From Kiritimatiellia bacterium (GTDB taxonomy: Bacteria; Verrucomicrobiota; Kiritimatiellia; SLOV01): a stretch of DNA of 64,000 bases. The translations under genes and the position numbers were made by a program. The DNA is taken from positions 14,188-78,187 of the forward strand of contig CAUZEO010000001.1 in assembly GCA_963578625.1 (NCBI GenBank). The letters run 5' to 3'. Shown here piece by piece: positions 19,554 to 64,000 of this stretch; the stretch's first letter is position 1, and every line of letters begins with the position of its first letter. The notes under the pieces were generated by a model. The model was given only the letters and a program-made list of their open reading frames with translations. It was not told the DNA's origin and searched no databases.

Positions 19554-19600
19554 TCGAAGTTGCATTCCTTGTTCGTTAGCTATCGGCGGCGAATCGCCAA

Positions 19601-20686: not shown

Positions 20687-20708
20687 GGTTTCTCCACGTG
20701 ATTTTGAA

Positions 20709-36319: not shown

Positions 36320-38524
36320 TCAGGCGAACTCGAGGAACGACTCCTCACAGGTCAGTTCGTAGATCCGCACATCTGTCGCCGGCACGGCGGCCTTCAGCCT
36401 GCCCTTCTTGATCATGGCCTCCCCGCTGGAGAGCCACTCGAGACATGACTCGATTTTCTGGCCCTTGACCTTCACCGTTCCCTCCCAGGTTACCTCCCCG
36501 TTGTTGACCAGGGTGACCAGGAGTTTGCGCGGGTCGTCGGTAACGTTCACGATCCACTGGATGGGCCGCCCCTTGACCTTGATCAGGGAGGTTGACTCGA
36601 TCACCGAGCCCACGATCTCCTGCACGACCTTGAGGAAGTTCGGCGGCGGAAACGGACGGCCCCGGATGTAGTCGTTCCGGTAGTTCATGTCCCAGGGCAA
36701 ATCGTCCCGCTTGTGCCAGACGTAGTCGGGACGCTCGCCGGTGGCCCAGAACACCGGCGTGACCACATAGACGCTGCCTTCGCCCACCCGGTTCACGCAA
36801 ACCAGAGGATCGCCGGCATCGTTTACCGCGAGCACCTCGGCGCCGTCGGATTCGACCTTGTCGTAGATGTACTCCGCCTCCTTGTAGCTCTTTCCCGTGA
36901 CCAGGCTCTTCGAGCCCGTCCCCTTCGCGTCCGTTTCCTTCACGCGCAAGCCGGCGAGGTTTGCGAGGGTTCCCCTGAGTTGGCGCGTGCAGAGGACGAC
37001 GGTCCGCCCGGCCCGGACAAACGACTCCACGTTGGCCGCGAAATCCTCGTCGTCGGGCATCCCGCCCAGCAGGACCGCGACCTGGTACTTGTTGAGGACA
37101 TCCATCGACGCGTTGCTCAGGATCACATCGAACGAATCGCCGAGCGGGGTGGGCGTCAGGCATCCCCGGCCGTTGATCGCGTAGGCGTACTCGCCATAGT
37201 TCGGAAAGATCCAGTGGAAGAACTGATCGATCTGGAAATCGCCCAGGGTGTAGTCGATGTTACCCCAGACTTTCTCCGGATGGCCCTGCCCCATGCCTTT
37301 GTGGATGGGCGGGTTCCACCCGTGGTGGAAGTCGAGCACCAGGGCCACCGGCGAGTACTGCACACCGCGGTCCGGGCGCGTCCGCGTGGTCCACACCCAC
37401 TTGCGGTACTCCCGGCCGAACGGCGTGAGGTTGGCCTCCAGGTCGTGCCCCCGTTGGACGTTCTGCTTCTTCATCGCGCCCTTGATGTCGCCCACCCAGG
37501 AGTCTTCCCCTTTCACCGGGATCTCCGGCCGGATCCCCTCCGCCTCGATGGTCGAGAACTCCTTCGGCAAGGCACACATGTCGTCGTAAAAGAGCCCACC
37601 CTCGGTGCCGCACAGACTCAATCCGTACATGTAGCCGGCGAACCAGAGGCGCTTGGCGAGGTGGGTGGGAACGCCGCCGTCGGGGTGGCCGAACATGAAC
37701 TCGACCTTGATGCCGGGGCTGTTCCTCGGGAAACACTTCGTGTTGTAGAAGTCGGGTTTCTGCTCGATGCTGGGCATGAACATGGAGATGTGGGCGTGGG
37801 TGAGCAGGTCGTACTGGCGGGCGGCGCCGCGCAAGAACGCGCAGCGCATGATGCTGCTCTGCAACCCGGTGCCGAGTTCCAGGCCGATCATGCGGTGACC
37901 CATCTCGCCGTAGTAGTGGCAGAAGCCCAGGCTTCCAATGGAGACAACGTGGTGATGGAAGAGGGCGTCGAGGGTGTCCCTGGAGAACCGGACAAAATCC
38001 CCGTAGGCCTCCTTGCGGCTTCGGTCGGGTGATTGCTCAGGCCATTCGTAGGAGCCGAAGACATATTGGGCGCAGTACTCTCCGTCCTGCTCCCCGTTCT
38101 CCCATCCGAGAAACCGCGGCCCGAAAATGTCGAGCAGGAACCGGTGGGTTTCCTCCGGCACCACCGCCTCGCCGGTGCCGTTGAAAAAGTCCATCCCGTG
38201 CCGGATGCCCCAGATGCTGTTGAGGATCAGTCCCTTCTCGGCGTACTTCTTCGCGATCGCCCGCCACCCCGGCTGTTCGTCCTCGATCTGATCGGACCAC
38301 ATGTAGGCACTGAAGGGCCGGATGGCGGTGGCAAAATCGTAGTCGAACATGGTGTTGTGGATGAGGTAGTCCTTCCACCCCATCTGCACGCTCTCCTGGA
38401 AATCCTTGGGGAGGTCGCGGCGGGCCACCGGCTTCGGGTCCAGTTGTTCGTACCGCTCGCCCTCCTCCGGGACGATGGCCTTGTTGGGGATGGGCTGCAG
38501 TTTCAATTCAGGCAAATCGGGCAT
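36320..38524 (-). CDS. Uncharacterised large protein, family A copy A3
   Basis: 734 aa, collinear with A1 and A2. Confidence 0.85.
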   Translation of the reverse strand: MPDLPELKLQPIPNKAIVPEEGERYEQLDPKPVARRDLPKDFQESVQMGWKDYLIHNTMFDYDFATAIRPFSAYMWSDQIEDEQPGWRAIAKKYAEKGLILNSIWGIRHGMDFFNGTGEAVVPEETHRFLLDIFGPRFLGWENGEQDGEYCAQYVFGSYEWPEQSPDRSRKEAYGDFVRFSRDTLDALFHHHVVSIGSLGFCHYYGEMGHRMIGLELGTGLQSSIMRCAFLRGAARQYDLLTHAHISMFMPSIEQKPDFYNTKCFPRNSPGIKVEFMFGHPDGGVPTHLAKRLWFAGYMYGLSLCGTEGGLFYDDMCALPKEFSTIEAEGIRPEIPVKGEDSWVGDIKGAMKKQNVQRGHDLEANLTPFGREYRKWVWTTRTRPDRGVQYSPVALVLDFHHGWNPPIHKGMGQGHPEKVWGNIDYTLGDFQIDQFFHWIFPNYGEYAYAINGRGCLTPTPLGDSFDVILSNASMDVLNKYQVAVLLGGMPDDEDFAANVESFVRAGRTVVLCTRQLRGTLANLAGLRVKETDAKGTGSKSLVTGKSYKEAEYIYDKVESDGAEVLAVNDAGDPLVCVNRVGEGSVYVVTPVFWATGERPDYVWHKRDDLPWDMNYRNDYIRGRPFPPPNFLKVVQEIVGSVIESTSLIKVKGRPIQWIVNVTDDPRKLLVTLVNNGEVTWEGTVKVKGQKIESCLEWLSSGEAMIKKGRLKAAVPATDVRIYELTCEESFLEFA

Positions 38525-46059: not shown

Positions 46060-47045
46060 TCATCGGCGCAGGTACGATTCAGGAGCCCCGCCGGACAAGC
46101 GCCGGCCGTCGACCTCCAGCGTGAAGAGGTTCTGCTCCAACGGCTCCCGGAGCGCATCCTCCCGCATGGACTTGTGCGTCAGCTTTTTCAGGGATATCCC
46201 GTTGTGATGTCGAAGCACGACACGCATCGCGCCGTTTTCAAAGGTATCGCTCTCATCGCCTTCCACAAAGCGGGGCGCCGTGTCCGGCGGTGCCTGCAGT
46301 GGGGTAAATTCCGGTGCCATATCGATCGCCGGCAGGGGCGGAAAGTCCTCGTGACTGAACGAAAGATCATCCTTGTTGGCGTTGCGGTTGAGGAGAACCA
46401 TCCGGACCATGTATTCGCCGGCAAAGCCGTCCTTATTTAGGGGGCGCGGCATCCACGTCGCGCCGGCATCGGTTGATCGGGAACTGCAGCCCTGATCCTC
46501 AAATATGTCGATGCTGATCACCAGCCGGTCGTCGTTCTCCGGTGAATCCGAGCTGGGGTGGATGACGATCTCATTCGGACCATGGACGAGCTGCTTCCCG
46601 GGAATGTCGAAGTCGAACCAATTGATGGCCAGCCGGATGTCGAACCAGCCCCATCCGGTGCTGACGAGGTTCTCCGTAGGGAACGTGTTGGTATGACCGT
46701 TCACCATCACCTGAAACGTCCCGTCGAGACCATCGCCCTCGTCGTCCTGCGCGTGCATGAAGATGTTGACCCGGGCCGACTCGATGGCGGCAAAGTCCTG
46801 ATCCGAGAGATCGGTCAGATCCAGGATTTTCTTGATTCGCTCCGCTGAGGGCCGCTGCGTGACGTGGCTGTAGTCCTTGTAGTTGTAGAACGAATAGTCG
46901 GCGGTGGCCACGAACACGCCGGGTTCGGGTTCGATGATGGTTGCAGGCTGCGCCGCGCTGACTACCGCGGATACCCGGGCAGGAGCAGAACAAGCGATGC
47001 GACGGCAGCATTCCGGACAAGGCACGCATGAGTCCCAACTGTCAT
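46060..47045 (-). pseudogene. Family-B N-terminal-domain remnant (frameshifted start, truncated after ~320 codons)
   Basis: Encodes the B-family N-domain (…VATADYSFYNY…FQVMVNGHTNTFP…ISIDIFEDQG…FSHEDFPPLPAIDMAPE…ENGAMRVVL…LFTLEVDGRRL) and then stops. The ATG at 47045 has an AAGGAG SD and a signal-peptide-like start in another frame. Confidence 0.55.
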
Positions 47046-47143: not shown

Positions 47144-49879
47144 TCAGGGAGCCGTCGAATCAGACCCCGGCCAAACGACCGCATCCACGAGGCGGTCGTT
47201 TCGGTGGATTTTCAGGACGAGGCCCGGCTGATCGCGTGCTTCGGCCGGCCAGTCCAGTCGCTGCCTTCCGCCGGTGAGCGGGAATTCAGCCAGCACGGTA
47301 CCATCATCGCCGACCAGCTTGCCGGTCATTCCTTTCGCGTCTTTGGGAAGATGCAATTTGCCGCCGTCGCGCTTCCACTCCACTTGTGCCAACTCAGGCA
47401 GTCGGGCAACGATAGCAGCTTTGCGGGCGGGAAGACTGATCGGGAGCACCGACTGATTACCCTTCCGGGAGGTAGACAATTCCGCATGGCGTAGCAGGTC
47501 GACAACGTGAGTGCCCGGTTTCGCATCCAGCAAGAGCAGATCGCCTTCCACCGCCTCGTTCCGCGCATTGTAGATCGTGTAGACCGTCTTTTCTCCCGCA
47601 GGAAATTCGTTGGCATAGACCTGCGGCATTAACGTGGGAATCATGGGTTTTGGGTATAACGCGCCGAAGGCATCGGCGTTTTCCTGCATGACCGCCAGTT
47701 CTTTCGGCGAGAAGCACCATTCCCGGTTGAACGCCCCGGTGGCGTTGAATATTCGCCACTCCGGAACTTTGGATAACACCTGGTAATCGAAAATCTTGAA
47801 GCGTGGAAAATAGAAGCGTGCGACGTTGATGCCCACAAATCCTTCCACCTCGCCGAACGTGGGAAGGATCTGCCGCCATTCGGATAGATCGTAGGACAGG
47901 GTGCCGTCGAAATATTGCCAGATCAGGTCGAAGCCGGGATTCTCGGTCATGAGCACCGTGTCCGGGTCCACCTGGTCGACAGCCATACGTACCTGCCGGG
48001 CGGCGGCAAGCTGGGCCTGGGCGTCGACCTGGTGATTCGGCTCACCGAATGTGTGCGTGTGGCGGTCGTTGTAACAGATCGGATTGTTCGCACCCATGAC
48101 GTCGATACGAATGCCGTCGGTCCCGGTTTCCACGGTCAATCGACGGCAGGTTTCGGCGATGTATTCCCGCCACTCCGGGTTGTTCATGTCCATGCCCCAC
48201 ATGGCGCCCATGGGCCACTGGTACCGGGGTTCGGGCCAGTCCTCGTGCTTTTCAATGACGCCCCACTCCGGGCCGTGGCGCGCACCGATGATGCTGGAGA
48301 GCGCGGCCTCACCGACATTGATGTAGAGCGTGACCACGTAGCCCAGCCGTTTCATATCATCCAGATAGCCGCGAAAGGCGGGAAGTCCACCCCACCGCTC
48401 GTTGTACCCCTGGAGGCCGTAGTCGCCCTGGTTGCCCCAAAAATACCGGGTCCCCTCCATGAATGGATCCCCCCGAATTTCCGGTTCGTGAGGAAATTGA
48501 AACGCAAATTTCCCATCCTGCATGATGGCGGACCGTTCCGACGTGACCACGTTGGTATGGCCTGCCTGCTCAATGGCGGTTTTCCGGTGTTTCTCAAGAT
48601 ACTCGTCGGTGACCACATCCCATTCCCAGTAGGAGGTGTGCTCCACCATGTCCAGCGGGGAGCTCAGATACTCGCGGGAGTGCTCGCCTTCGAAAATCGG
48701 GATGTGCCCCCATTGTCCTATATCAGTGTTGTACCCGTTTTCATTGTGAAAATGATGCGCCGCGCTGGTTCCCTCGAGGTTGAACCGGTCGATCAGTTTT
48801 CCCGGATGAGGCCGCTGATGCGCGAAGCTCTCGAACCAGGACCGGTAGGCCTCCATGGCCTGGCGCCAGTCCCCATTGCAGACGCCGAGCACGGCGGTGG
48901 GAAGAAACCAGCGCTCGTCGGGTTCGAGGTTACGTTGTTGATACGTGAACGCCATAGAGGTGCCGGGTTCCGCTTCCAGCGGATCGTGAAACACCAACTC
49001 TCTCACCAGCCGGCCATGCCTCATGGCTTCCTCGGTGGTCCGAAATCCAAACTCCGTCCGACCGTCGGGGACGTTTGCCTTGTTCAGGTGCATGATCTTG
49101 AATTCGCCGGTCTGATCTGCGGCATTGAGATAGAGCCCCCCGCCCTTGTCCGGCCGATAGGATGCCATGACCTGGAAGTAGGCCTGTCCGCCGCCGTAGG
49201 CATTGGCGAACACGGCAGGCGACTTGGATAGAATACCGGTGAGCAACGGGTAGAAGAAATGATCTTCCGTTGGGTCGCTGTCCCAGGCGATGCCGGTGAG
49301 CATGGGAAAGGCCACGTTGACATCTTTCGCGGCAGCGCCCGTATTCTGCAACGACAAGCTGATGCGGAGTTCCGGACCCTCGTCGGCGCGGATCTCCACG
49401 GTCGCGTGAATACGCTGATCGCTTTCCAATTCGTAGCGGACAAAGGCCGACCCGGGAGGCGAAACCGGTTCGGTCCGCGAGGCGACCCGAAAAGCGCGGC
49501 TGTCCACCCGGTCCCCGTCGATCATCAACGTGAAAAACGGGCTGCCCTCTTCTGATTCGATGACGGACGCCCCTGCGGGACGATGGTGGAATTCGCGGAC
49601 CGCCAGTCCCGGATCGGTCTCCATGAGCATACGGAACCACCCGTTCTCCAGCGTGTCCGCGCCGGATTGAGACGTGATGGTTGCAGCTTGCGATGCAGGC
49701 GATTCGAGTTCAAGCACCGGCGGATTCAAGTCGATCGACTTTGCTCCGCTCGATGCGGCATGAACCTGTGAGGCCACCAGGCAGGGAATGAAATACAGTG
49801 AATAAATGAGTGTGCGTGCCACGGCGAAGAACTCCTTGATATTTTGATCCCAATGCTTCCGGCGCGAGCCGACGGTCAC
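47144..49879 (-). CDS. Family B copy B3, core-only variant (own signal peptide, lacks N-terminal domain)
   Basis: 911 aa. Begins with the signal peptide TLIYSLYFIPCLVASQVHAA and then joins the B alignment at IDLNPPV. All core blocks are conserved. Confidence 0.8.
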   Translation of the reverse strand: MTVGSRRKHWDQNIKEFFAVARTLIYSLYFIPCLVASQVHAASSGAKSIDLNPPVLELESPASQAATITSQSGADTLENGWFRMLMETDPGLAVREFHHRPAGASVIESEEGSPFFTLMIDGDRVDSRAFRVASRTEPVSPPGSAFVRYELESDQRIHATVEIRADEGPELRISLSLQNTGAAAKDVNVAFPMLTGIAWDSDPTEDHFFYPLLTGILSKSPAVFANAYGGGQAYFQVMASYRPDKGGGLYLNAADQTGEFKIMHLNKANVPDGRTEFGFRTTEEAMRHGRLVRELVFHDPLEAEPGTSMAFTYQQRNLEPDERWFLPTAVLGVCNGDWRQAMEAYRSWFESFAHQRPHPGKLIDRFNLEGTSAAHHFHNENGYNTDIGQWGHIPIFEGEHSREYLSSPLDMVEHTSYWEWDVVTDEYLEKHRKTAIEQAGHTNVVTSERSAIMQDGKFAFQFPHEPEIRGDPFMEGTRYFWGNQGDYGLQGYNERWGGLPAFRGYLDDMKRLGYVVTLYINVGEAALSSIIGARHGPEWGVIEKHEDWPEPRYQWPMGAMWGMDMNNPEWREYIAETCRRLTVETGTDGIRIDVMGANNPICYNDRHTHTFGEPNHQVDAQAQLAAARQVRMAVDQVDPDTVLMTENPGFDLIWQYFDGTLSYDLSEWRQILPTFGEVEGFVGINVARFYFPRFKIFDYQVLSKVPEWRIFNATGAFNREWCFSPKELAVMQENADAFGALYPKPMIPTLMPQVYANEFPAGEKTVYTIYNARNEAVEGDLLLLDAKPGTHVVDLLRHAELSTSRKGNQSVLPISLPARKAAIVARLPELAQVEWKRDGGKLHLPKDAKGMTGKLVGDDGTVLAEFPLTGGRQRLDWPAEARDQPGLVLKIHRNDRLVDAVVWPGSDSTAP

Positions 49880-52390: not shown

Positions 52391-55300
52391 ATGAACCAGA
52401 GATCAAGTTTCACTTCAGCTCGCCGAACCCTTTCGAGATCGTTGTCACCCATTATCGCAATCCTTGCGCTTGCGGCTGTGTCCACATCGCAGGCGAATGG
52501 CACCACAATTCTCCAGCCGACCGGCGGTGTCCACGTGGCCGTAGCCGACATGGGGTTTTACGATTTTCAAAATTTTGCCCACGTGGTACTCGCGAAGCCG
52601 TCGCAACGACTGAGGAAGGTGCTGGACCTGTCCGGCATTGATGAGCAGGCCTGGCAGAGGATCGGCGCGGCCGAAGTGAGCCTGTTCCTGCACGCCGAAG
52701 ATGCGTCAGGGGACGGACTCGATGAACATTTTGAAATTGTCGTTAACGGCCACGTGAACGTATTCGCTACCGAGGGCCTACGCCGTACTGGAATGGGATG
52801 GTTCGGGCACTACCTGCCCACCGGTTGGTTCGATTTCGCAATCAATGCGGACCAGCTTGTTCGTGGAACAAACGTGATCGTGGTTCAGAGAAGCGATTCC
52901 GCACAGGCCGGAGACGATGTATTAACCATCGGTATCGATATTTTCGAAGACAGGGGCCGGAGCTGGTGTTCGTTCGATCGCGGTTCCAGCTGGAGCCCGG
53001 GACCCTTGAACCGGCCGTTGGCGAGTGTGGGCTATCCCGACTACGGGCACTACGGAGAGTTGATGATTCGTCTCAATCTCTACGACGACGCTACCCGCCT
53101 GGGAAGAAAAGGATTTTCCCACGATGATCTTTTGCCGTTGCCGGCTGTGGACTTGAACCCTCCGGTAAAGCTGCTGCCGACTCCATCAACCTTCCCGGCA
53201 AGTGTTGCACTTGGAGGGGAAATCGACCGGCTGGAGAACGGATGGATGCGCCTGCAGATTGGGCATGCCAAGGGTCTGGCCCTGGAGGAGATAATCCATA
53301 AGCCCATGCGCAGGAACGTGGTAAAGGAAGGCCCAACCAGCCTGTTTGCGCTGGAGGTGGACGGGCGGCACGTGCAAAGCGCCGAACTGGAAGTGACGGG
53401 CCGCGAGCAGCTCGCTACGGGTTCGAGCGCGGTGAAGGTTGTTTACTTTCTCCGGGATCCGACCAGCGAGGTGGAAGCGAACCTCTCACTGCGACTGGAC
53501 AACGAGTCCGAGCTCACGGCAGGCCTGTATTTGAAGAATGCGGGTACGGCACCCCGCGGCATCAAGGTGGCGTTTCCGATGCTCACCGGCCTGGGGTGGA
53601 GCGAGGGATTCAAGGACGATTGGTATCTGTTCCCCTACACCACGACCGGAGTCATGCTGAAACACCCGGGGAAATTCGTAAATCCCTATGGCGGGGGAAC
53701 CGGCTCGGGGAACACGTTCTTTCAACAGATGACGTCCTACTCGCCTTCGATGGGTGGAGGCCTGTACATGAGAGCGAACGATTCCAGTGGCGGGTACAAG
53801 CTTTTTCATCTCACGCGAACCGATGCTACCGGATCGCCGCCCTCGTTTTCGTTCCAGGGAATCATCCACAATATGCTGCATGGCCAGGCCACGCCGCAGC
53901 TTGTCTTTCTCGAGCCCTCAAAACCGGCCGCCGGCACCAGCATGGCGGTCAGCTACATTCAGCGTGAATTGGCGCCCGGCGAGCGGTGGATCCTTCCCCA
54001 GTCCGTCATCGGAATCATGAACGGCGACTGGCGCCAGGCGATGGAGAGCTACCGTGCATGGTACGAAGGCTGGTCGCACAAGAGACCCTATCCCAGCAAA
54101 CTCGCCGCCGTCTTTAACCTCGACGGTGTCAATGCAGCGGGGGGCTACCACAAGGAGGATGGATACCATTCGGATTTCCACGAAGCGTGGAGCCGGCCCG
54201 CGGATGGGCTCGAGCACACATCCTACTGGGAGTGGGACGAGGTAACGGATGAGTACCTGGCCGAAATGCGGGAACTCGCCGCCCGCTACGGCAAGGAGTT
54301 CACCTTGTGGCCGGGCCGTCACGGGATCCACGGGGGAACACATTACTATCACGAAAGCAGAAAGGGAGACTACGGCCTGACCGGGTACAACGAACGCTGG
54401 GGCGGTCTTCCCGCGTTCCGGAAATACATCGATGAGGTGAAGAAGCAGGGCATTCTTGCCACCCTCTATGTCAACGAAGGGGAGGCCGGGCTGAACAGCG
54501 TTATCGGGCGGGAAAAGGGGCCGGACTGGGGCGTGATGTATCCGGACGGAGTTTACTTCTGGCCCTACTGGATGTGGGAAATGTGCGTCGACAACCCGCG
54601 GTGGCGAACCTACCAGGCGGATTTCTGCAGACGGCTGATCGCGGAGACCGGGGTCGACGGCTTGCGCATTGACGAATTCGGGGGGGCATCGCGCATCTGC
54701 ACCAATCCAGGTCATGAGCACACCTTCAACCGCCCCGGTCATTACGCCACGTTCGAGGCACAGACCGAAGCGTGCCGGCAGATCCGGATGGCCGTGGACC
54801 AGGTCGACCCCGATGCGATCGTGATGAGCGAGACGCCGGGAATCGACACCATGTGGCAATACCTGGACGGCGCGCTGAATTACGATCTCACGCAATCCTC
54901 GTACACCGGGGGCCGGGCCGCAAACTGGGAGGGATTCGTGGGGCTCAACATCTGCCGGTTCTACTTTCCAAGATACAAGCACTTCGACTACCAGATCCCG
55001 GAAAAGCTTCCTGCATGGCGGTTGTTCAATGCCACCGGGGCATACAACAATGAGTTTTTCTACGAGGAACTGGAACACTCCATTTTGAAGGAGAATGCCG
55101 ATGCGGTCGGTACGTTGAATCCCAAACCCATGATTCCCACGCTGCTGCCCAGGGTCTACGTCAACGAGTTTCCCGGCGAGGAAAAGACGATCTACACGGT
55201 GTATAACAGCAGGCACGCCGCTGTTTCGGGAGACTTGCTGGCGGTGCCGCACAGGCCCGGATTTCATTTCGTGGACCTGGTCAACATGGAAGAGGTGGGG

Positions 55301-55612
55301 TCACGGAAAGAGAAGGGCGTGGAGATTATTCCAATCCATCTTCCCGCGCGAAGCGCCACCCTCGTCGCCCACATGCCAAAGCTGTTAACGCTCAAGCGAA
55401 GCAGGGGGCGCGTCGATGTGAAATTGAATCGAGAAGTCCCGGGCGGAACGTTCCACGTGATGAAGCGCGATGGCCCCGTGCTGCCTCCTGCTTCCGTTGA
55501 AGGCCTGAAATTGAAACTCGATCACATCGAATTCATCGGGAACATCAAGGACCCGATGATCATCAAGCTGCAGGTAGGATCGAGGCTGGTGGATGCGGTG
55601 GTGGTGGACTAG
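52391..55612 (+). CDS. Family B copy B2 (secreted)
   Basis: 1073 aa, signal peptide, full-length collinear with B1. Confidence 0.85.
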   Translation: MNQRSSFTSARRTLSRSLSPIIAILALAAVSTSQANGTTILQPTGGVHVAVADMGFYDFQNFAHVVLAKPSQRLRKVLDLSGIDEQAWQRIGAAEVSLFLHAEDASGDGLDEHFEIVVNGHVNVFATEGLRRTGMGWFGHYLPTGWFDFAINADQLVRGTNVIVVQRSDSAQAGDDVLTIGIDIFEDRGRSWCSFDRGSSWSPGPLNRPLASVGYPDYGHYGELMIRLNLYDDATRLGRKGFSHDDLLPLPAVDLNPPVKLLPTPSTFPASVALGGEIDRLENGWMRLQIGHAKGLALEEIIHKPMRRNVVKEGPTSLFALEVDGRHVQSAELEVTGREQLATGSSAVKVVYFLRDPTSEVEANLSLRLDNESELTAGLYLKNAGTAPRGIKVAFPMLTGLGWSEGFKDDWYLFPYTTTGVMLKHPGKFVNPYGGGTGSGNTFFQQMTSYSPSMGGGLYMRANDSSGGYKLFHLTRTDATGSPPSFSFQGIIHNMLHGQATPQLVFLEPSKPAAGTSMAVSYIQRELAPGERWILPQSVIGIMNGDWRQAMESYRAWYEGWSHKRPYPSKLAAVFNLDGVNAAGGYHKEDGYHSDFHEAWSRPADGLEHTSYWEWDEVTDEYLAEMRELAARYGKEFTLWPGRHGIHGGTHYYHESRKGDYGLTGYNERWGGLPAFRKYIDEVKKQGILATLYVNEGEAGLNSVIGREKGPDWGVMYPDGVYFWPYWMWEMCVDNPRWRTYQADFCRRLIAETGVDGLRIDEFGGASRICTNPGHEHTFNRPGHYATFEAQTEACRQIRMAVDQVDPDAIVMSETPGIDTMWQYLDGALNYDLTQSSYTGGRAANWEGFVGLNICRFYFPRYKHFDYQIPEKLPAWRLFNATGAYNNEFFYEELEHSILKENADAVGTLNPKPMIPTLLPRVYVNEFPGEEKTIYTVYNSRHAAVSGDLLAVPHRPGFHFVDLVNMEEVGSRKEKGVEIIPIHLPARSATLVAHMPKLLTLKRSRGRVDVKLNREVPGGTFHVMKRDGPVLPPASVEGLKLKLDHIEFIGNIKDPMIIKLQVGSRLVDAVVVD

Positions 55613-56160
55613 CCGCCAACATCCACAGACCACCCGGATTCCGATGACCGCTGGGCGGCCTCAATGATCTTAATCGACTCGCGGACGCCGGCCGGATCCA
55701 CCGGAACCGGACCTTCTCCCATCAGGTGCGATGCGACCTTCTGATAAAACCCGCGCATGCGTTCGACGCCGGCGGGAGTTCGGCCCCTTCCACCCGGCGG
55801 CGCGGCTGAAATTTCTTTTTGGCCACCCGCGCCAACTCGACCCTTCGAGGGGACTGATGTGCTCGCGTTGCGGGCCGAATATTCCCGTAAATTCAATCAG
55901 GGAACAATCGAGGATGCGTCCGTTGCGGGCCTGTACGTACCCGTCCCAGCAGAAGTCCGTGTGATGAAAGGCGTGCTGGGCATACCAGAACCAGTATCCC
56001 CACTGGATGCGGATGGAATAGGTTTCTTTCGCGGCCGGACCATACCGGAAGAGGAGATCGCCGTCCTAACGAAACGTTCATTCGAAAATAGTTTGGAGGC
56101 ATCAATGATGGAATGTAATCGATCAGGCCCGGGATACGCATTTATGTCTGAGTTCCGCCT
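55609..56160 (-). pseudogene. Possible remnant of an oxidoreductase (Gfo/Idh/MocA-like C-terminus)
   Basis: Two minus-strand frames give …DGDLLFRYGPAAKETYSIRIQWGYWFWYAQHAF… and …GFYQKVASHLMGEGPVPVDPAGVRESIKIIEAAQRS…, joined only by a frameshift. There is no intact ORF. Confidence 0.3.
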
Positions 56161-56271
56161 TTAGGCGGAAGCAGTTATCCGGCTTCAGCCGGGAATACAC
56201 CGCCCGGAATCATTCCTGTTACCGGGTCGCTGAAGCTCCCCCGGGCTTCCGCCTGAAGGCGGAACTCAGAC
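56146..56271. repeat. 126-bp palindromic element with 27-bp terminal inverted repeats
   Basis: gtctgagttccgcctttaggcggaagc … gcttccgcctgaaggcggaactcagac (26/27). Each arm is itself a hairpin, and the interior holds ccggcttcagccgg. Confidence 0.65.
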
Positions 56272-56323
56272 CTCTCCCACGTCTGGACTTATCGCTGGGA
56301 AATTGGGTGCTTGTGGTGAGTTT

Positions 56324-58204
56324 TCAACGACCCGCAATAGCCCCCAGCCCTTCAATGGCCTCCGCAATTTGCGCCCGGGCCGCGTAGAGGTTGCGGGCAT
56401 CGCTGTCATAGTCCGTCATGCTGCGGACGAGCTCGTGGACGGTGGCCAGTGCCGCCTCGCCGGCGACGATCGCTGCGGCGCTGCGTGGATCTTCGGATCT
56501 ACCGGCCCGGGCACGTGCCAGGGCTTGTTCGAGCACCCAGAAATATTCCTTGTCCTCGAGTCCTTCGCGGATCATTTCCCATCGGATGGAGTTGACCGGG
56601 CCCGCGATCAGCGGCTCGTCCGGTACACCTCGGGCCGGTGGATAAAGCAGCAACCCGTCCCCGTTGCCAAAGTGCCCTCCGCCGGGTGAGATCGCCATCG
56701 CGGTCTCCCAGGGGTTGCGGATGGCACGATCGGCGACGGCTTCTCCGATACCTTTATAATAGTTCACGCTCCAGTAGAGGGTCCCGGTCACTTCGTATTT
56801 CTTCATCATCCAGAAATGAATCCGCTGGTTGATGGCGGGATGATCGATGAAATTGTTGGCGTACGGGTGCTTGGGGCCGGTGCAGATATACCACCAGATT
56901 TCATCGCCGGCCGCGCGGCTCTTTTGGGCCCTGGATTCGTCGTAGTGTGAGGTTAGCGGCACCCAGATATCAACTGCGTCGTCAATCTCGTGTCCGATCC
57001 CCAGCGTCACCAGGCGTTTCAGCCCGGGACAGATCCGCCGGACCAGTTCGCCTTCCTGTACTATCAGCGGAAAATCCGATTCGGGGGGCTCGTCCCACAG
57101 ATAACAGTAAACCCTGTCCTGCCAACCTTTTTGTTGCACGTGTTTCCAGATGGGACCGAGAATGAGTTCAAAATACCGGTCGTAAGCCGGGTCTTCGCGC
57201 CATTTCCCCTCGCTGCGTCGGGGGCTGAACCGCGGTGGTCCGAACAGGTCGTTGGGGGGCCAAAACAGGCAAACCGAATTGAACCCCAGTTCATCCAGGT
57301 AGCGGGTGGCCAACCGGTCGAACTCGGTGAGGTCCAGTTCCAGGTCGCCGGACTCCCGGTTCCTGCGATTCACCAGTTCGCTTGGGCTGAGCTTTACGCG
57401 GGCAAGATCCGTGAGGTTGAAGCCGTGCGTAACCGGAGAAACGCGATGCTCGGCGAAATTCTGCATGTAGAGATCGTGAACCTCTGCCCGCTCGGCGCCG
57501 GTTCGGAGGCCATGGTACGCGAAGTCGTCCATCCAGATTCCATACGCGCTCCGGGTGTGGGTATCCTCAGGCAATGTGAAGTCCCAGACCTTCAAACGGA
57601 GAGGCACCCGATGATCGTCGGTGCCGGTCCGTTGCAGAATGATGGTGCCCGCATAGTCTCCGGCAGCCGCGTCCGCCGGCACATGGATGGTAATCCAGAA
57701 CGGATTGTTCTTTCCGCCCGACAAGTCTGCCGGCCCGTCCGTCGGGGGCAGCGGATCCGGCCAGTCGCCTGCCGTGCCGAAGGCATCGGTTGAGTCCGTC
57801 ACGGGTACGTACTCCGCGCGGTCGATTCGAATCGACTCTCCACGAATGGACGCCGAGCCCGGGCCCTTCAGATCGCTGATGTTGATTTGAATTCCCGGCA
57901 TCGATTCCGCCGGCCGCAGTACGAGTTGGAACGGTTCGTACTCGTTTCGGGCGGCCGCGATTTCAACATGCGTTGTGGTTGAAGTGGGAGTCTCTCGTTC
58001 CCGGCCCACTTTATACGTTCCTTCACACCACCACAGCTCCAAGCCGTCCGGACCCGTAAGGCTGTAGCCGAAATCCGTTGCCAGGATCTCCGGCACCGGG
58101 GAAGCGGCTATACTCATCGGGACTCCGATAGCTGCCACGGACATCCACGACACCCAGGTTCGCTTGATTGGCATCATGCCTTCCTCTCTTATGCGTTCGG
58201 GCAA
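56324..58204 (-). CDS. DUF4091-like secreted protein (putative glycoside hydrolase)
   Basis: 626 aa with a signal peptide. GNGDGLLLYPP…IREGLEDKEYFW C-terminal block. Parent of the pseudogene at 13094..13623. Confidence 0.7.
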   Translation of the reverse strand: MPERIREEGMMPIKRTWVSWMSVAAIGVPMSIAASPVPEILATDFGYSLTGPDGLELWWCEGTYKVGRERETPTSTTTHVEIAAARNEYEPFQLVLRPAESMPGIQINISDLKGPGSASIRGESIRIDRAEYVPVTDSTDAFGTAGDWPDPLPPTDGPADLSGGKNNPFWITIHVPADAAAGDYAGTIILQRTGTDDHRVPLRLKVWDFTLPEDTHTRSAYGIWMDDFAYHGLRTGAERAEVHDLYMQNFAEHRVSPVTHGFNLTDLARVKLSPSELVNRRNRESGDLELDLTEFDRLATRYLDELGFNSVCLFWPPNDLFGPPRFSPRRSEGKWREDPAYDRYFELILGPIWKHVQQKGWQDRVYCYLWDEPPESDFPLIVQEGELVRRICPGLKRLVTLGIGHEIDDAVDIWVPLTSHYDESRAQKSRAAGDEIWWYICTGPKHPYANNFIDHPAINQRIHFWMMKKYEVTGTLYWSVNYYKGIGEAVADRAIRNPWETAMAISPGGGHFGNGDGLLLYPPARGVPDEPLIAGPVNSIRWEMIREGLEDKEYFWVLEQALARARAGRSEDPRSAAAIVAGEAALATVHELVRSMTDYDSDARNLYAARAQIAEAIEGLGAIAGR

Positions 58205-58325
58205 GGTAGTTGAATTTGCCGGGCATAGACAGACCGAATTCCAGTGGCCCGAAGCAAGACCCGCCTCATCTGGAGGGGCAACGGGGACGTTGCCCCACCG
58301 GGACGCTGATGCCCGTAACCTGCCC

Positions 58326-60206
58326 TCACTTCATCACCGGGATCACAATCCCGCGCATGATGATGCGTTGGGCGAGAATAAAGACGATGAGCGGGGGCAA
58401 CGAGGCGAGGGTAAGCGCCGCCATGACCAGGTATTCCGGATTGTACATCTGCAGTTCGTACAGAAAGACCATGATCGTCCAGAGCTCAGGATTCTGACAC
58501 ACGATAAATGCCCACATGAAACTTCCGTAGGCGAAGGTAAATGCGAACAGCGCGATAACGGCGAAAATCGGCAGGCACAAGGGCACGACAACGGTCAGGA
58601 ATATGCGCGCCTCCGACGCCCCTTCCAGTTCCGCCACTTCGAACAACTCCTGGGGCAGGCTGTCGAAAAATCCTTTGAGCAGGAATACGTAAAACCCGTT
58701 CACCAGGTTCGGCAGGATCAGGGCCCAGTAGGTATTCAGCAGGTGGAACTGCTTCAGCAGGAGAAAAGCGGGGATCATGGCAATCTCCGCCGGAAATGCC
58801 ATCGTCGCCAGAAGGAAAAGAAGAATCTTGTAACTGTATCGAAGCCGGTACCGTGACAAGGCATATGCGCAGAGGGGTCCAATGGTCACCTGCCCGATGA
58901 CGACCCCCAGGACAAGAACCAGTGTGTTCCAGAACGCGCGGCCGCGCGTGATCATGTATTTACCCATCATGCGGTAGTTCCGCGTCAGAAAATCCAGCCG
59001 AATGCCAATCTTGTTCCGGCTGAACGCCAGCACGTCGGCCTCCAGGTAGGGCGGGGCAATTTCGGAGAAGCACTCGTACTGTGTGCCGTACGCGGCATTT
59101 ACCTGTTCAGCGCTGCCGAACTTTTTCTCAAGGAAGACTCGATATCGAGTGTCGGCACTGTCCACGCGCAAGGTCTCAGCCGGAGTGTGCTGTTCCACGA
59201 ATTCCTGCCAGTCCCTGCGCGGCAGAGACTCGGAGGGCTCGGTGTTCGAAAGCTGGACATCGGCGATTTTCGCGTAGTGGCTGCCGTACTCACGGTTCAG
59301 CCGCTCCGCGCTGCCGTACTTATTGCGGAGATAATCAGTGAAGGCCTCCCCTCCGCCTTCGAGTGTGAGATACCGGAATGGCCATTTGCGCCTGACAAAT
59401 TCTTCCCAGTCTTCACGCGCTGCCCCCGAGGGGGGGGCGGTCACAACAAGCGGGACCCGCATAAAGGATGAGTAGCTGGACGCGTATGCCTCGTTCAGTG
59501 ATTCAAGCTGTAGATACTTCCCTTCGAGAAATTTTCCAAACTTTGCATCTCCCGACACAACGATCCGGTATGGATGGGGAAGGCTGTCCCGCAGTTCCTC
59601 CCAATGCCGCCAATGGGGTGTATCATCCGGATCCCATGAGCGGACCATGGGGTCCTCGTACGGCAACAATACGTCCTCGAATTCGGTATTCTGGTCCAAA
59701 TACACCCGGTTCAGCGCTTCGATGTCACCCCGGAAGCGGTTTCGCAGGGCGCCTGCATATTTTGAGGCTACCTTCACTTCGAAAGCCCGTTGGAAAAACC
59801 GGGACGGGAGGCTTTCCTTGAACTGAATCCACTCTTCAACGCGCGAGATCGTCCGGGCCGAGGTTGGATCGATTTCGTCCAGGTTCAGCCCCACGTCTTC
59901 GTAGCTCAGGAATTCGGTCCGGTAACAGTCGTTGAGGTTCTGAATGTTGACGCCCTGCTTCATGAAATTCTGGAAGTAGCCGTACCGGTCGTTGATGTAC
60001 TTCAGAAACAAGACATCATCGTTGAACAAATACCTGGGCACGAGCCGGTGCTCCGAAACATCGACAGCGCTGCAAATCGACGAGCCGAGCATCAGGCCGA
60101 AGGGATACAGCACGGTGATCGCGCCAAGGGTCAGCACGAGGTAGACCCCCGCGATGACCGCGCGTGTGGTCCAGGCTTTCCGGCCTACGGTACTGATAAT
60201 AGGCAT
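58326..60206 (-). CDS. Carbohydrate ABC transporter permease (MalG-like) with ~380-aa periplasmic domain after TM1
   Basis: The C-terminal half has 5 TMs and the EAA loop ELFEVAELEGASEARIF. The N-terminus has one TM followed by a large soluble domain. Confidence 0.8.
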   Translation of the reverse strand: MPIISTVGRKAWTTRAVIAGVYLVLTLGAITVLYPFGLMLGSSICSAVDVSEHRLVPRYLFNDDVLFLKYINDRYGYFQNFMKQGVNIQNLNDCYRTEFLSYEDVGLNLDEIDPTSARTISRVEEWIQFKESLPSRFFQRAFEVKVASKYAGALRNRFRGDIEALNRVYLDQNTEFEDVLLPYEDPMVRSWDPDDTPHWRHWEELRDSLPHPYRIVVSGDAKFGKFLEGKYLQLESLNEAYASSYSSFMRVPLVVTAPPSGAAREDWEEFVRRKWPFRYLTLEGGGEAFTDYLRNKYGSAERLNREYGSHYAKIADVQLSNTEPSESLPRRDWQEFVEQHTPAETLRVDSADTRYRVFLEKKFGSAEQVNAAYGTQYECFSEIAPPYLEADVLAFSRNKIGIRLDFLTRNYRMMGKYMITRGRAFWNTLVLVLGVVIGQVTIGPLCAYALSRYRLRYSYKILLFLLATMAFPAEIAMIPAFLLLKQFHLLNTYWALILPNLVNGFYVFLLKGFFDSLPQELFEVAELEGASEARIFLTVVVPLCLPIFAVIALFAFTFAYGSFMWAFIVCQNPELWTIMVFLYELQMYNPEYLVMAALTLASLPPLIVFILAQRIIMRGIVIPVMK

Positions 60207-60223
60207 TGCAAATTGATGAGTCG

Positions 60224-62923
60224 TTATTTCGCCGTGGTGAACTGAACCCGCTTTAGAATTCTCAATTGCCAGATCGCGAATCCGATCAGCAGGCTGGCAA
60301 GCACCCAGGACAAGGCGCTGGCGTAGCCGAAGCGCAAGTACAGGAATGCGTTGTAGTAAATCTCGAGTCCGAGCACGTGGGTGGCATAGGAAGGGCCGCC
60401 CCCGGTCATGACAAAGATGTTTTCCGTGGCGCGAAAAGCGCCAATGAAGGCGCCTACGAAATTGATGAGGATCAGCGGGGTGAGATAGGGGAGCGTCACG
60501 TGCAGCACTTTGCGCACGGGGGACGCCCCGTCCATGTCCGCGCTGTCATACAGATCGTCGGGCACGGTCTTGAGGGCCGCGAGATAGATGATGCTTCCGG
60601 GCCCGGCCGCGGTCCAGATGGCGGCGACGATGACGCTGAGCATGGCGAGGTCGGGATCCTGAAGGAATCCAAGCGGGGATTCGATGAGGCCGAACCTGAG
60701 CAGCCAGCTGTTGATGACCCCCACCGGTGAAGGGTCATACATATTTTTCCAGAGGAACATGAGCACCAGCATGCTGGTGACGGCGGGTAAATAGAATACG
60801 ACGCGAAAGAACAGGCTTCCGCGTGGAACTTCCTGTAACAGGATGGCGAGGAGGATCGGCGCGAAGAATCCCAGGCCCAGGGTCAGCGCCACGTAATACA
60901 GGGTGTTGAGGATCGACCGCCAGAAGATGTCGGAGTTGAGCATGTTGATGAAGTTGTCCATCCCGATGAACCGGCTGTCGCCGAGCACCCGGTAGTCCTG
61001 GAACGCCATGATAGCGACCTTGATGAGAGGATAGTATTGCCACACGGCGATCGCCAGCAGCGCGGGAAACATCAGCATCCAGGCCTCGAATTGGCGCCTG
61101 GGACGCGGATTCGGAGGCATCATGACCGCGTCCGCGTTGTCGCGGCGTCGGTAGGCTGCAAACCAGAGGCCCAGTGCGAAGACCACCGCCAGTACGAGCC
61201 CGATGGCCACGTAATTTGCAACTTTCCGCTTGTGCGCCATTTCGGCCGGATCCGATGCTCCGAGGAGAACCTTGTTTCCTCGATCCGCGCATGCATTCAG
61301 GAGTGCGCGCGCGTCCACGGATTCGATTTCGTCTTCCTTCGCATACAAGAGTGCGTCCACCGGCGCGGCGATATCCACCAGTACGCTCTTGAACCCGGTA
61401 GGCAAAGGGTCGTTGCGCCCGGTTTGCAGCAGCGTTTCGTAGGTCGACAGCCACTGGCGCGGGGCGTCGTCGAGGTAGTCGTCGTACCCGAATTTTCTCA
61501 GGTATTGCGGATCCACCAGTTCGCCGTATCCACTTTCCACGTGGAAATCCACCTTGATCCGTTTTGCCTGGTCGGAGGCAATATGCCGGATATACGCCCA
61601 GGCCGCTTCGCGCACTTCCGGGTCCTTCACCTGCGAATTTATGCCTCCGCAGTTGGCGCCGAATCCCGAGGCCGCGAAACCATCGGGTCCCTCGGGGAAC
61701 GGCGCGTACCCGAACAAGTTGGGCGGCTGGAAGACCTGGGCGCCGATGACGAATTCGCTGCAGATGTTGATCAGCATCGCGACCTGCCCGTTGAGCAGTT
61801 TATCGTTCATGTGATAGTAAGACGAGAGGGTCACGACGCCGGTGTAAATTTTCCGATCCGCCTTTTTCTGATCGAGAATTTCCTGCGAAAGGACATGGCC
61901 GTTCGGGCACTTGATGATTTCCGGCCTGACAAATTTTCCGGTTCGGTAGTCCACGCCACGCACATCCACCGGTTCGTTGTCCTCGGGACATCGCGTCCAC
62001 CGGCTCCATCGAAGTTTCTTGTAGAAATTCAGCGCCATGACCCCGGGGTCCCGGTTGAAAGCGACCTGCCACCTCACCGGTGCATCCGCCAGGGGGACCT
62101 GGTGTGTTGGACACTCGTCGGGGAACAGGTGGTTTTGTCCTTCATTGTCGAGCTCGATCGGATCCACGAGTTCCGCGCCGGCCGGGCACTCTTTGCCCGG
62201 AATGGCCAGACGCCCGCCCGCTTGATAGATGAAGGACGGGAAATACATCGACGTGTTATGGGGCCCGGTCATAATGCCGTACCCGTACAAGCCTCGATCG
62301 TGATCCGTCAGTTTCTGCGCGAAAGTATAAAGCTCGTCCCAGTCGTGAGGGCCCCGGTGGGGGTCAAGACCTGCATCGCGAAACCGGTCCCGCCGGTAGT
62401 AGAGGCCGGACAGGACATAATCGTAGGGAATCCCATAGATGTGCCCGTCATGGGTCAGGCCCGCGCGTATTTGCGGCAGGAAGATTCGGTCAAACCATTC
62501 CTTGTTTTCCGGTCGATTGATGAATTCATCGAGGGGATAAAGAAATCCTTCTTCCACATAGGTTGCCAGTGATCCGCTGTTGACCTGAACCACATCGGGT
62601 GCGGTGTTGCCGGCCATGGCCATCAGGAACATGGATTGCGAGGCCGGATTGGTCGAGTCCTCCATCTTGATGCCGCCGGCCTGCCGGACCTTGATGTGTG
62701 GATGCTTCTGTACGAACGCTTCGTAAACAAGCCGGTTCGGGCGTTCCAGTTTCCATTTCACCTTGGGCACTTCCCAGATCGAAAGCTCTACCGGATCGGG
62801 TGCGGGTTGGGCCGGGGCGGCGACCGCGGACTGGAGCCCGAAGAGAGCAAAACACAGGGCGAGGAAAAGTTTCGGGTGGGCGGGATCTTGACAGAAATTC
62901 GAATGTGTCACGGATAACAACAT
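60224..62923 (-). CDS. Fused sugar-binding protein (SBP family 1) plus ABC permease (MalF-like)
   Basis: Signal peptide (KLFLALCFALFGLQSAVAAPA) and a ~600-aa solute-binding domain. Then 6 TMs with the EAA motif DSADMDGASPVRKVLHVTLP in the same frame. The ORF opens at 63112. Confidence 0.75.
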   Translation of the reverse strand: MLLSVTHSNFCQDPAHPKLFLALCFALFGLQSAVAAPAQPAPDPVELSIWEVPKVKWKLERPNRLVYEAFVQKHPHIKVRQAGGIKMEDSTNPASQSMFLMAMAGNTAPDVVQVNSGSLATYVEEGFLYPLDEFINRPENKEWFDRIFLPQIRAGLTHDGHIYGIPYDYVLSGLYYRRDRFRDAGLDPHRGPHDWDELYTFAQKLTDHDRGLYGYGIMTGPHNTSMYFPSFIYQAGGRLAIPGKECPAGAELVDPIELDNEGQNHLFPDECPTHQVPLADAPVRWQVAFNRDPGVMALNFYKKLRWSRWTRCPEDNEPVDVRGVDYRTGKFVRPEIIKCPNGHVLSQEILDQKKADRKIYTGVVTLSSYYHMNDKLLNGQVAMLINICSEFVIGAQVFQPPNLFGYAPFPEGPDGFAASGFGANCGGINSQVKDPEVREAAWAYIRHIASDQAKRIKVDFHVESGYGELVDPQYLRKFGYDDYLDDAPRQWLSTYETLLQTGRNDPLPTGFKSVLVDIAAPVDALLYAKEDEIESVDARALLNACADRGNKVLLGASDPAEMAHKRKVANYVAIGLVLAVVFALGLWFAAYRRRDNADAVMMPPNPRPRRQFEAWMLMFPALLAIAVWQYYPLIKVAIMAFQDYRVLGDSRFIGMDNFINMLNSDIFWRSILNTLYYVALTLGLGFFAPILLAILLQEVPRGSLFFRVVFYLPAVTSMLVLMFLWKNMYDPSPVGVINSWLLRFGLIESPLGFLQDPDLAMLSVIVAAIWTAAGPGSIIYLAALKTVPDDLYDSADMDGASPVRKVLHVTLPYLTPLILINFVGAFIGAFRATENIFVMTGGGPSYATHVLGLEIYYNAFLYLRFGYASALSWVLASLLIGFAIWQLRILKRVQFTTAK

Positions 62924-63150
62924 CGCGGTCACCGACAATAGCCTGCACTCACATTGGTGTGCAATCCCTAACGCTGTAGATATGGGGAAAACCGAATGGC
63001 GCTTAGTTAAGCGCAGCTTTGGATCGAAGAGCGACGGAAGGCTGATTTGTAATCCGCCATTATCTACGATGTTTTCGGCCCTTTCACGGCGGATTGAAAA
63101 TCCGCCCTCCATCCAGCCATAATCGAACGCGGCCGTACTGTAGCGCGAAG

Positions 63151-64000
63151 TCAGGAATCGCCGGGGACCACTGCATCCACCAGCAGTTTTCCCCGGTAGA
63201 GTTTGCAGATCACTCTTCCTGAATCGGCAGGTATGGTAAGCGTCGCACGCCCGGTCCCCGCTTCTTCTTCCGCGAGGATTTTTCCAGAGAGGTCTACCAG
63301 TTTAAGCGTCGCGTCTTCGAAGTCATCCGACAGACGAACCGTGAGTTCGCGACCTTTCTGTTTCACCTTCATCAACTTCGACAGGTGGGCAATACAGGTG
63401 ACAGAGCGCGGTTCGAGCTCGATGGCGACCACGGTCTTGTCGCCCCTCGTGGAGGCTTTGACGTTGCGGTACCGGTACAGATCGACCAGGTGCGTGCCTT
63501 TGCGGGCGGGGATGTCCAGCAGAGCACCCTTTGCCGGGATGTTCGCCGCATTGTACACGGTCCACACGGTTTTGTCCTTCGCCGGGAATTTGTTCACGTA
63601 CACCAGGGGAATCTTTGACCTGATCATCGGCTCCCGATCCAGCGACCCGAACGCATCGCTGTTGTCCCGCAGGATATGCCGCTGGTGCTCGCGGTAACAC
63701 CATTCCCGATTAAATGCTCCGGTGGCATTAAAGAAACGCCACTCAGGCTGTTTCAGGCTGATCTGGTAGTCGAACATCTTGTGGCGGGGAAAGTAGAAAT
63801 GATGGATGTTGATGCCGACGAACCCCTCCCAGTTTGCCGCCACGTGGGCGGTGAACGGCTGTTCCGTCAGGTCGTAGCACAAACTGGCGTCCAGGTACTG
63901 GCCCAGCACGTCGATACCCTGGGACTCCGAGAGGAGGACCGAATTCGGATTCACGCCGTCCATGGCACGGCGCACTTGCCGCGCGGCATCGGACTGCGCC
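63151..64000 (-). CDS. Family B copy B4, C-terminal part (5' end beyond window)
   Basis: …VDGVNPNSVLLSESQGIDVLGQYLDASLCYDL…FYFPRHKMFDYQ…FNATGAFNREW…PMIRSKIPLVYVNKFPAKDKTVWTVYN matches the B core C-terminus. The frame stays open to 64000. Confidence 0.75.
   Translation of the reverse strand, partial: AQSDAARQVRRAMDGVNPNSVLLSESQGIDVLGQYLDASLCYDLTEQPFTAHVAANWEGFVGINIHHFYFPRHKMFDYQISLKQPEWRFFNATGAFNREWCYREHQRHILRDNSDAFGSLDREPMIRSKIPLVYVNKFPAKDKTVWTVYNAANIPAKGALLDIPARKGTHLVDLYRYRNVKASTRGDKTVVAIELEPRSVTCIAHLSKLMKVKQKGRELTVRLSDDFEDATLKLVDLSGKILAEEEAGTGRATLTIPADSGRVICKLYRGKLLVDAVVPGDS

Follow-up and report, generated by a model that had tools for sequence, protein, structure and literature searches.

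ATP-binding cassette (ABC) sugar importers are the main route of oligosaccharide uptake in glycan-degrading bacteria, and their mechanism is understood almost entirely from systems with a free or lipid-anchored substrate-binding protein (SBP). In E. coli MalFGK2, the P2 domain of MalF contacts the binding protein (2R6G structure). To our knowledge, GlnPQ and OpuA are the only characterised systems in which the SBP is tethered. In OpuA, the link consists of a transmembrane (TM) anchoring helix and a short linker (PMC11065425, PMC8025302). Here we describe a pair of genes with a link of the same construction in a 64,000-nucleotide (nt) stretch of DNA from a Kiritimatiellia bacterium (GenBank assembly GCA_963578625.1, contig CAUZEO010000001.1, positions 14,188–78,187; hereafter, the window). 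One gene encodes an SBP fused to a MalF-like permease core and the other a MalG-like permease with a giant periplasmic repeat domain. The evidence makes it likely that this pair is a self-contained two-gene ABC importer of the CUT1 kind (MalFGK2, UgpAEC and SugABC), with an unusual and widespread architecture that includes a repeat domain, and set in a glycan island.

The fusion gene lies on the minus strand at 60224..62923 and encodes 899 amino acids (aa) by an external gene call on the same contig. Read from its first ATG, the open reading frame (ORF) is longer (60224-63112, 962 aa); the homologues and the position of the signal peptide led us to prefer the 899-aa start. Pfam places SBP_bac_1 (aa 128-302) and BPD_transp_1 (aa 752-952, both in 962-aa numbering) in one chain, and the SBP part also matches SBP_bac_8. 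Pfam, the structural model and hydropathy divide the protein into a signal peptide, the SBP (aa ~40-560), a TM anchor (aa 572-590), a linker and a six-TM core (aa ~605-899). The linker between anchor and core is predicted to be short, basic and cytoplasmic, as the hydropathy scan and the model agree, and this topology would place the SBP in the periplasm and the N terminus of the core in the cytoplasm. The translation of the core contains the EAA loop DSADMDGASPVRKVLHVTLP, which reads DSADMDG-ASPVRKVLH-VTLP against the pattern EAA-x3-G-x9-I-x-LP. Sequence matches in the PDB are to AlgM1, SugA and MalF for aa 597-877 and to sugar SBPs for aa 35-245, and partial NCBIfam matches show further resemblance to UgpA, GlcT and MalF.

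For the fusion, AF2 gave a model with an overall pLDDT of 73.5 and values of 80-95 across most of the SBP region. In Foldseek comparisons, the modelled SBP superposed on whole sugar SBPs (target-normalized TM score 0.7-0.78), with matches to Tlet_1705, T. maritima MalE3, GacH, Lmo0181, a sophoro-oligosaccharide binding protein, CbpB and UgpB. The SBP also carries a Cys-rich, beta-rich insert (61844..62191, minus strand; aa ~245-360) with the spaced motifs CPAG...CPTH...CPED...CPNGH, modelled as beta strands at a pLDDT of ~87-96. Among the homologues compared, this insert is clade-specific, limited to three proteins (P0121-P0123). In two distant homologues (P0131 and P0133), partial CxxC...CxxC analogues occupy the corresponding position, and the region may therefore form a periplasmic subdomain that resembles a zinc ribbon or is knotted by disulfides.

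The MalG-like gene (58326..60206, minus strand) begins 17 nt downstream of the fusion and encodes 626 aa. On the basis of Pfam, PDB and NCBIfam matches, it consists of TM1 (aa ~16-45), a periplasmic insert (aa 44-424) and a five-TM core. Pfam finds BPD_transp_1 at aa 440-620 only, so that ~380 residues separate TM1 from the permease core. The core matches UgpE, GlcU and MalG in NCBIfam below cutoff (aa 422-621) and MalG, AlgM2 and SugB in the PDB (aa 420-625), and its translation contains the EAA loop EVAELEGASEARIFLTVVVP (EVAELEG-ASEARIFLT-VVVP). The insert (58935..60077, minus strand) is built of 4.5 repeats of ~65 aa, as seen both in the AF2 model and in the repeat alignment. Each unit runs helix, short strand, helix, helix, with the consensus R.DW.eF...P.....F..fL..KYG..e.LN..Y...Y..F. 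AF2 modelled aa 44-424 from a 17-sequence alignment with high confidence (pLDDT 89.9, pTM 0.87), and the model had no Foldseek match in the PDB at E <= 1e-3 (TM score <= 0.14). A HMMER search of 1.84 billion representative sequences with the insert yielded 300 clusters at 50% identity (E <= 0.001). Among the 150 clusters listed, most place the match at ~aa 46-425 of ~620-640-aa proteins, and a minority are longer proteins, fragments or proteins with a displaced match. The repeat domain thus appears to occur almost only in this permease architecture.

At the sequence level, the pair has the features of CUT1 importers: two distinct BPD_transp_1 permeases, EAA loops in both and a family-1 SBP. 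NCBIfam scores are far below their cutoffs (UgpA, 106 against 335 bits; UgpE, 93.5 against 297; MalG, 70 against 261), and the pair therefore belongs to no named equivalog (UgpA/UgpE, MalF/MalG or GlcT/GlcU). The initial annotation of this region stated that the window has no ATPase gene, which we confirmed. A tblastn search of the 64 kb with two nucleotide-binding domains (NBDs) returned nothing below E 0.2, and a motif search found neither Walker A nor a genuine signature motif. In some relatives, an ATPase does adjoin the pair. In L099/L100 the next gene downstream is of the MalK type (ABC_tran and OB_MalK, with TOBE_2 where scanned), and these loci hold the complete set of fusion, giant-loop MalG and MalK (L099 6001-11951). 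L041 also has a MalK-type gene in this position by Pfam, and L078 an NBD-like ORF by BLAST only. CUT1 systems that share one unlinked ATPase are documented, as for MsmK of A. bescii (PMC11212667), and the missing ATPase at this locus is therefore ordinary. CUT1 homology, the sugar-type SBP fold and the MalK-type ATPases next to the pair in relatives all support the designation of a sugar ABC importer that was given in the initial annotation.

The pair is conserved far beyond this genome. The MalG-like protein has 862 database homologues, and the best 120 are 608-681 aa long, with 98-100% query coverage and 38-73% identity. In a scan of one genome per GTDB species, at least 505 stretches encode a relative. 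These come from Armatimonadota, Verrucomicrobiota, Kiritimatiellia, Lentisphaeria/Victivallales, Planctomycetota/Phycisphaerae, Firestonebacteria, Cloacimonadota and others. We compared the neighbourhoods of 83 non-redundant loci from Armatimonadota, Verrucomicrobiota, Kiritimatiellia, Lentisphaeria, Planctomycetota and others. A fusion homologue lies directly upstream of MalG on the same strand in 70 of them, with a median gap of 17 nt, and in 63 of these 70 paired loci SBP and permease share a single ORF; most of the others are cut by contig ends. When the flanking ORFs were clustered, MalG was present in 80 loci and the fusion in 69, and every other family in nine or fewer. The commonest of these were GFO/IDH/MocA (9 loci), DUF1559/N_methyl (9), LacI (8), nucleotide-binding domains (7), sulfatases (5) and GH4 (5). 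More than one paralogous pair is present in several genomes (L043/L044, L014/L016 and L042/L067).

The genes that flank the pair in the window are not part of this conservation. The two closest transporter relatives (73% and 63% identity) have a gene for a ~1100-aa protein next to MalG, in place of the GH123-like gene found there in the window. A GH123 relative near MalG was found in only one other locus of the 83 (L067, 26% identity), and DUF6259, the family of the window's B paralogues, occurs near MalG only in the 63% relative, where the two are not adjacent. The conserved unit is the fusion/MalG pair alone, not four genes; the upstream B4 gene and the GH123-like gene are variable neighbours and not fixed operon partners.

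We propose the following mechanism for the two-gene importer. The signal peptide would export the first subunit, and a complete SBP of the MalE/UgpB type would form outside the membrane, kept tethered to the six-helix MalF-like core by the extra TM helix. The tethered SBP would capture an oligosaccharide in the periplasm, close, and dock on the heterodimeric permease. An ATPase dimer of the MalK/MsiK type, encoded elsewhere in the genome, would then power translocation through the EAA coupling helices. We do not regard the repeat domain of the MalG-like subunit as an enzyme. Its most likely role would be that of a rigid structural platform beside the pore, which positions the one tethered SBP or retains it; a less likely alternative is that the domain holds glycan chains.

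The pair is flanked by two further genes in the region 56324-64000, where four consecutive reading frames occupy the minus strand with no gene on the opposite strand between them. The initial annotation had described four co-directional, packed genes: a family-B paralogue, an SBP–MalF fusion, a MalG with a giant domain and a DUF4091-like protein. ORFs and external gene calls confirm the co-direction, and the identities agree with Pfam and with the paralogue alignment. Packing holds for the fusion and MalG genes with their 17-nt gap, but not for the other two intervals. B4 and the fusion are separated by 227 nt (62924..63150, minus strand), or by 38 nt with the alternative ATG at 63112. The features of this interval, a sigma-70-like match and two small hairpins, do not exceed what chance would give. 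MalG and the GH123-like gene are separated by 151 nt (58175..58325, minus strand), with a 9-bp GC hairpin and no U-tract. A promoter and terminator consensus scan of 55600-64000 gave counts equal to the shuffle expectation. Hairpins in the three intergenic gaps folded no better than shuffles (z from 0.05 to -1.3; 0.05 for the MalG–GH123 gap, -0.7 and -1.3 for the two hairpins between B4 and the fusion), and an Rfam scan of the region gave no match.

The gene downstream of MalG (56324..58174, minus strand; 616 aa by external call, longest ORF 56324-58204) matches GH123_cat (PF13320, the former DUF4091) at E 1.8e-28 (100.3 bits against a cutoff of 23.1), and the N-terminal beta-sandwich domain scores 36.8 bits against a cutoff of 27. 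The protein has a signal-peptide-like N terminus, and its best PDB matches, 8k2f and 8k2j, are oligosaccharide-releasing beta-N-acetylgalactosaminidases. The DE motif is intact (WDEP), with 'ylwDEppe' aligned to 'hlaDEpvr' of 8k2j. DUF4091 proteins are glycosidases that target beta-N-acetylgalactosamine (beta-GalNAc), and the DE motif, present in 94% of them, serves as their catalytic motif (PMC11087588). Compared with the characterised GH123 enzymes (NgaP, CpNga123, BvGH123 and the deep-sea Nga, 8K2F-8K2N), the window gene shares the beta-sandwich, PF13320 and the DE motif, at low identity (phmmer E 5e-32 to 1e-29, in a patchy alignment). The product is thus a predicted secreted glycosidase of the GH123/DUF4091 type with putative beta-N-acetylhexosaminide (beta-HexNAc) or beta-GalNAc activity. 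A remnant of a GH123-like paralogue lies elsewhere in the window (13049-13575, plus strand). It corresponds to aa 5-60 (71% identical) followed directly by aa 489-600 (65% identical) in a different frame, and is an internally deleted pseudogene.

The GH123-like gene is missing from some strains of the same lineage. Four assemblies from other samples (L101-L104) were found through members of the MalG cluster at 90% identity or more, and all are laid out alike. Aligned to the window by blastn, L101 and L102 proved 99.4-99.8% identical at the nucleotide level, and these alignments served to map the deletions. L101-L104 share two deletions, of window positions 57245-58243 and 53589-56988. Together these destroy the GH123-like gene, of which a 256-bp internal remnant is left. 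They also truncate B3, the convergent full-length DUF6259 gene (52391..55612, plus strand, 1073 aa), to ~400 aa by loss of the C-terminal ~675 aa, with the junction at 53588. B4, the fusion and MalG are intact in all four. The junctions lie at microhomologies of 10 bp (TTCGGnCCAC) and 6 bp (ATCGGA). Assembly artefacts were considered as the source of the deletions and rejected: four independent assemblies share both junctions, and microhomologies of 6-10 bp are far shorter than assembler k-mers. The GH123-like gene is thus deleted in four of the six assemblies of the lineage whose DNA was read, and intact in the window contig and in L002. The convergent GH123/B3 gene pair shows a natural presence/absence polymorphism, and since both genes are lost in natural strains that keep the importer, they are dispensable accessory genes. 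A further place with the same neighbouring genes is probably an 80.5-kb contig of the same protein cluster.

Upstream of the fusion, B4 (63151..64000, minus strand) comprises the C-terminal 282 codons of a probable DUF6259-family paralogue, whose frame runs off the end of the window. Over ~280 aa it shares 43-46% identity with the C termini of the three DUF6259 (PF19773) paralogues that Pfam identifies in the window (B1, 27706-30948; B2, 47144-49879; B3, 52391-55612). The B4 fragment itself has no Pfam match because it lies C-terminal to the PF19773 domain. L001 extends B4 to 377 aa, still homologous to B1 aa 696-1075, and the longer fragment in L103 has a weak PF19773 match. All assemblies of the lineage that were read (among them L001 1-1136, L102 and L103) end inside B4 within ~200 nt of each other, and none extends it beyond ~377 aa; this pattern points to a repeat, hypervariable DNA or a mobile element immediately upstream of the break. 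The last 40 nt of the window had no exact match in JGI metagenomes, and a protein-based metagenome scan with B4 found only one 2.8-kb contig. B4 adjoins the fusion in all assemblies of this lineage. Only one B4 orthologue was found elsewhere (62% identity), followed by HNH and transposase fragments and not by the transporter. Family-B homologues elsewhere have PhyH, GFO/IDH/MocA, AP_endonuc_2, CN_hydrolase, GH106 and LacI as neighbours (PhyH, GFO/IDH/MocA, AP_endonuc_2 and GH106 recurrently), and no transporter was found near them.

B1 and B3 have signal-peptide-like N termini. Weak Pfam similarity of family B to GHL15, GH66 and alpha-amylase suggests that DUF6259 may adopt a TIM-barrel glycosidase-like fold. 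A PDB sequence search with B3 found no solved relative, and our literature survey, of incomplete coverage, found no description of DUF6259. B2 (911 aa, minus strand) is without the family's N-terminal domain of ~320 aa, and a stand-alone copy of that domain occupies the next ORF downstream (46060-47025, minus strand). Because the core comes first and the N-domain second, this arrangement is not a simple frameshift split. The window also encodes a family A of three paralogues (6795-9002, minus; 25429-27687, plus; 36320-38524, minus), 65-75% identical and ~735-752 aa long, with no signal peptide and only a weak GH42M match. One member directly precedes B1, which gives at least one case of linkage between families A and B. 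The ~1100-aa proteins that adjoin MalG in the two closest transporter relatives (L012 11927-15268, plus; L005 5077-8322, minus) are orthologous to each other, with 44% identity and no Pfam match, and show a weak 170-aa similarity to family A.

In its overall gene content, the window resembles a glycan-utilisation island of a PVC-type bacterium. It further encodes PEP-CTERM, N_methyl, Laminin_G_3, PhyH, GFO/IDH/MocA, GHL6/fucosidase-like and oxidoreductase genes, and no transporter other than the fusion/MalG pair was recognised in the window ORFs scanned. For this reason it is plausible that the pair imports the products of the island's secreted enzymes, in a functional link that is not fixed. 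Two tandem N_methyl (prepilin-like) genes (22050-22949 and 22959-23729, both plus strand) are 89% identical, and near them lie genes for three paralogous Laminin_G_3 proteins, one with a PEP-CTERM tail (17900-21893, minus strand).

The initial annotation went further and joined B4, the fusion, MalG and the GH123-like gene into one operon, in which secreted enzymes would process a glycan outside the cell and feed the products to the importer, as a functional context for family B. The co-direction without an intervening opposite-strand gene, the signal-peptide-like N termini of the B-family and GH123-like proteins, the release of oligosaccharides by the closest solved relatives of the latter, the absence of any other recognised transporter among the ORFs scanned and the constant B4–fusion adjacency within the lineage all speak for such an operon. 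Yet the gaps of 227 and 151 nt contrast with the 17 nt within the pair, and the annotation had itself named a lack of conserved gene order in related genomes as evidence to the contrary, which is what we found. The order is kept neither in the 73% and 63% relatives nor across the 83 loci, neither at the 62% B4 orthologue nor around the B homologues, which have no transporter nearby. Across taxa only the fusion and MalG stay together, and in near-identical strains the GH123-like gene is gone while the transporter is intact. The four-gene reading as originally written is therefore only partly supported, and we regard it as unlikely. Co-transcription of all four genes is still conceivable in this strain, and this is one of several points that weigh against a strictly two-gene account. 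The partnership within the pair is not absolute: ~8 loci, mostly from Armatimonadales, Fimbriimonadia and Capsulimonadaceae, have a giant-loop MalG and no fusion gene within 10 kb. Nor does the fusion require the big loop, as a distant SBP–MalF fusion (L097 6001-9284) has as its partner a MalG of normal size (289 aa), in a locus with LacI and a GH13/CBM48 enzyme; an SBP can therefore be tethered without a giant loop in MalG, and the two traits are separable. The platform role of the repeat domain, moreover, is pure inference.

A further point against the two-gene sugar importer concerns its substrate. Because UgpA and UgpE give the best NCBIfam matches, the solute could conceivably be something other than a sugar, such as a glycerophosphodiester; the pair would then import glycerophosphodiesters or sn-glycerol-3-phosphate, as UgpBAEC does, and be a housekeeping transporter placed in a glycan island by chance. 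UgpB structures are among the SBP fold matches, JGI homologues are named 'glycerol-3-phosphate transport system permease', and in many Armatimonadota the pair sits among housekeeping genes that give no substrate hint. Against this, the UgpA and UgpE scores fall far short of their cutoffs, the best SBP fold matches are oligosaccharide binders, and the two or more paralogous pairs in several genomes follow the pattern of diversified nutrient importers. Carbohydrate-related neighbours recur (LacI, GH4, sulfatases and GFO/IDH/MocA, each in nine loci or fewer, and GH13 beside the distant fusion). We infer a sugar substrate and hold a non-carbohydrate one to be improbable. More remote still is the idea of a glycosidase, degenerate or novel, in the MalG insert, by which substrate would be cleaved at the transporter mouth. 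It would draw on faint Pfam matches of the insert to GH42 and GH14, on the name 'beta-galactosidase' that some homologues carry in NCBI, and on local structural matches to GH42, GH14 and GH50 enzymes. These matches, however, span only a peripheral helix-hairpin of ~40 residues of the barrels (root-mean-square deviation 0.6-1.7 Å), a unit that the insert repeats 4.5 times, and this resemblance explains both the faint GH42 match and the names. There is no TIM barrel (global TM score 0.14 or below), the residues that never vary are the Y, N, W and P positions of the repeat itself, and the homologue alignments contain no conserved acid pair. On the structural comparison and the repeat alignment we reject an enzyme identity for the insert, and the 'beta-galactosidase' name on some members of the family is corrected accordingly.

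The two-gene CUT1-kind importer thus remains our preferred reading, and it cautions that co-directional neighbours in a glycan island are not an operon. We found no published description of the fusion and giant-loop architecture in a literature survey of incomplete coverage, which, for fused or tethered SBPs in CUT1 or other sugar systems, returned only GlnPQ and OpuA; the architecture is apparently unstudied. More tentatively, and with rather more doubt than confidence, we suggest that the pair may stand for a mechanistic subclass of type I ABC importers that has not been described before and would be the first in CUT1 with a tethered SBP, in which a single SBP works against a repeat domain. 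Hundreds of species among PVC bacteria, Armatimonadota and other glycan-degrading phyla carry the pair. The repeat domain could then keep the SBP close to the pore or guide long glycan chains to it, and either role would change views of SBP docking and stoichiometry in sugar importers. The pair lends itself to testing how an SBP docks, in what stoichiometry it works and how substrate is handed over.

Set beside the known CUT1 importers (TC 3.A.1.1; MalFGK2-MalE, UgpAEC-UgpB, SugABC-LpqY and Sphingomonas AlgM1M2SS-AlgQ), the pair has the same two-permease type, EAA loops and SBP fold. A MalK-type ATPase with OB/TOBE domains is found in relatives of the pair, and the ATPase is often unlinked. 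The pair differs in that the SBP is fused to the MalF-like subunit through an extra TM helix, whereas theirs is free or lipid-anchored. The P1 loop of MalG, usually short, is here a repeat domain of ~380 aa, and the MalF-like core is without the P2 domain. P2 of MalF and the MalG insert are alike as large periplasmic domains borne by a permease subunit. P2, however, is an Ig-like domain of ~180 aa between TM3 and TM4 of MalF, whereas the insert is a repeat array between TM1 and TM2 of the MalG-like protein, and the two have no structural similarity. With GlnPQ and OpuA of Lactococcus lactis, the fusion shares a substrate-binding domain (SBD) covalently linked to the transmembrane domain (TMD). 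Those systems belong to amino-acid and compatible-solute families and have homodimeric TMDs with two or four small class-II/F SBDs. The pair described here has instead a heterodimeric TMD of the MalF/MalG type, a single large sugar-type SBP on one subunit and a partner subunit with a large periplasmic domain of its own.

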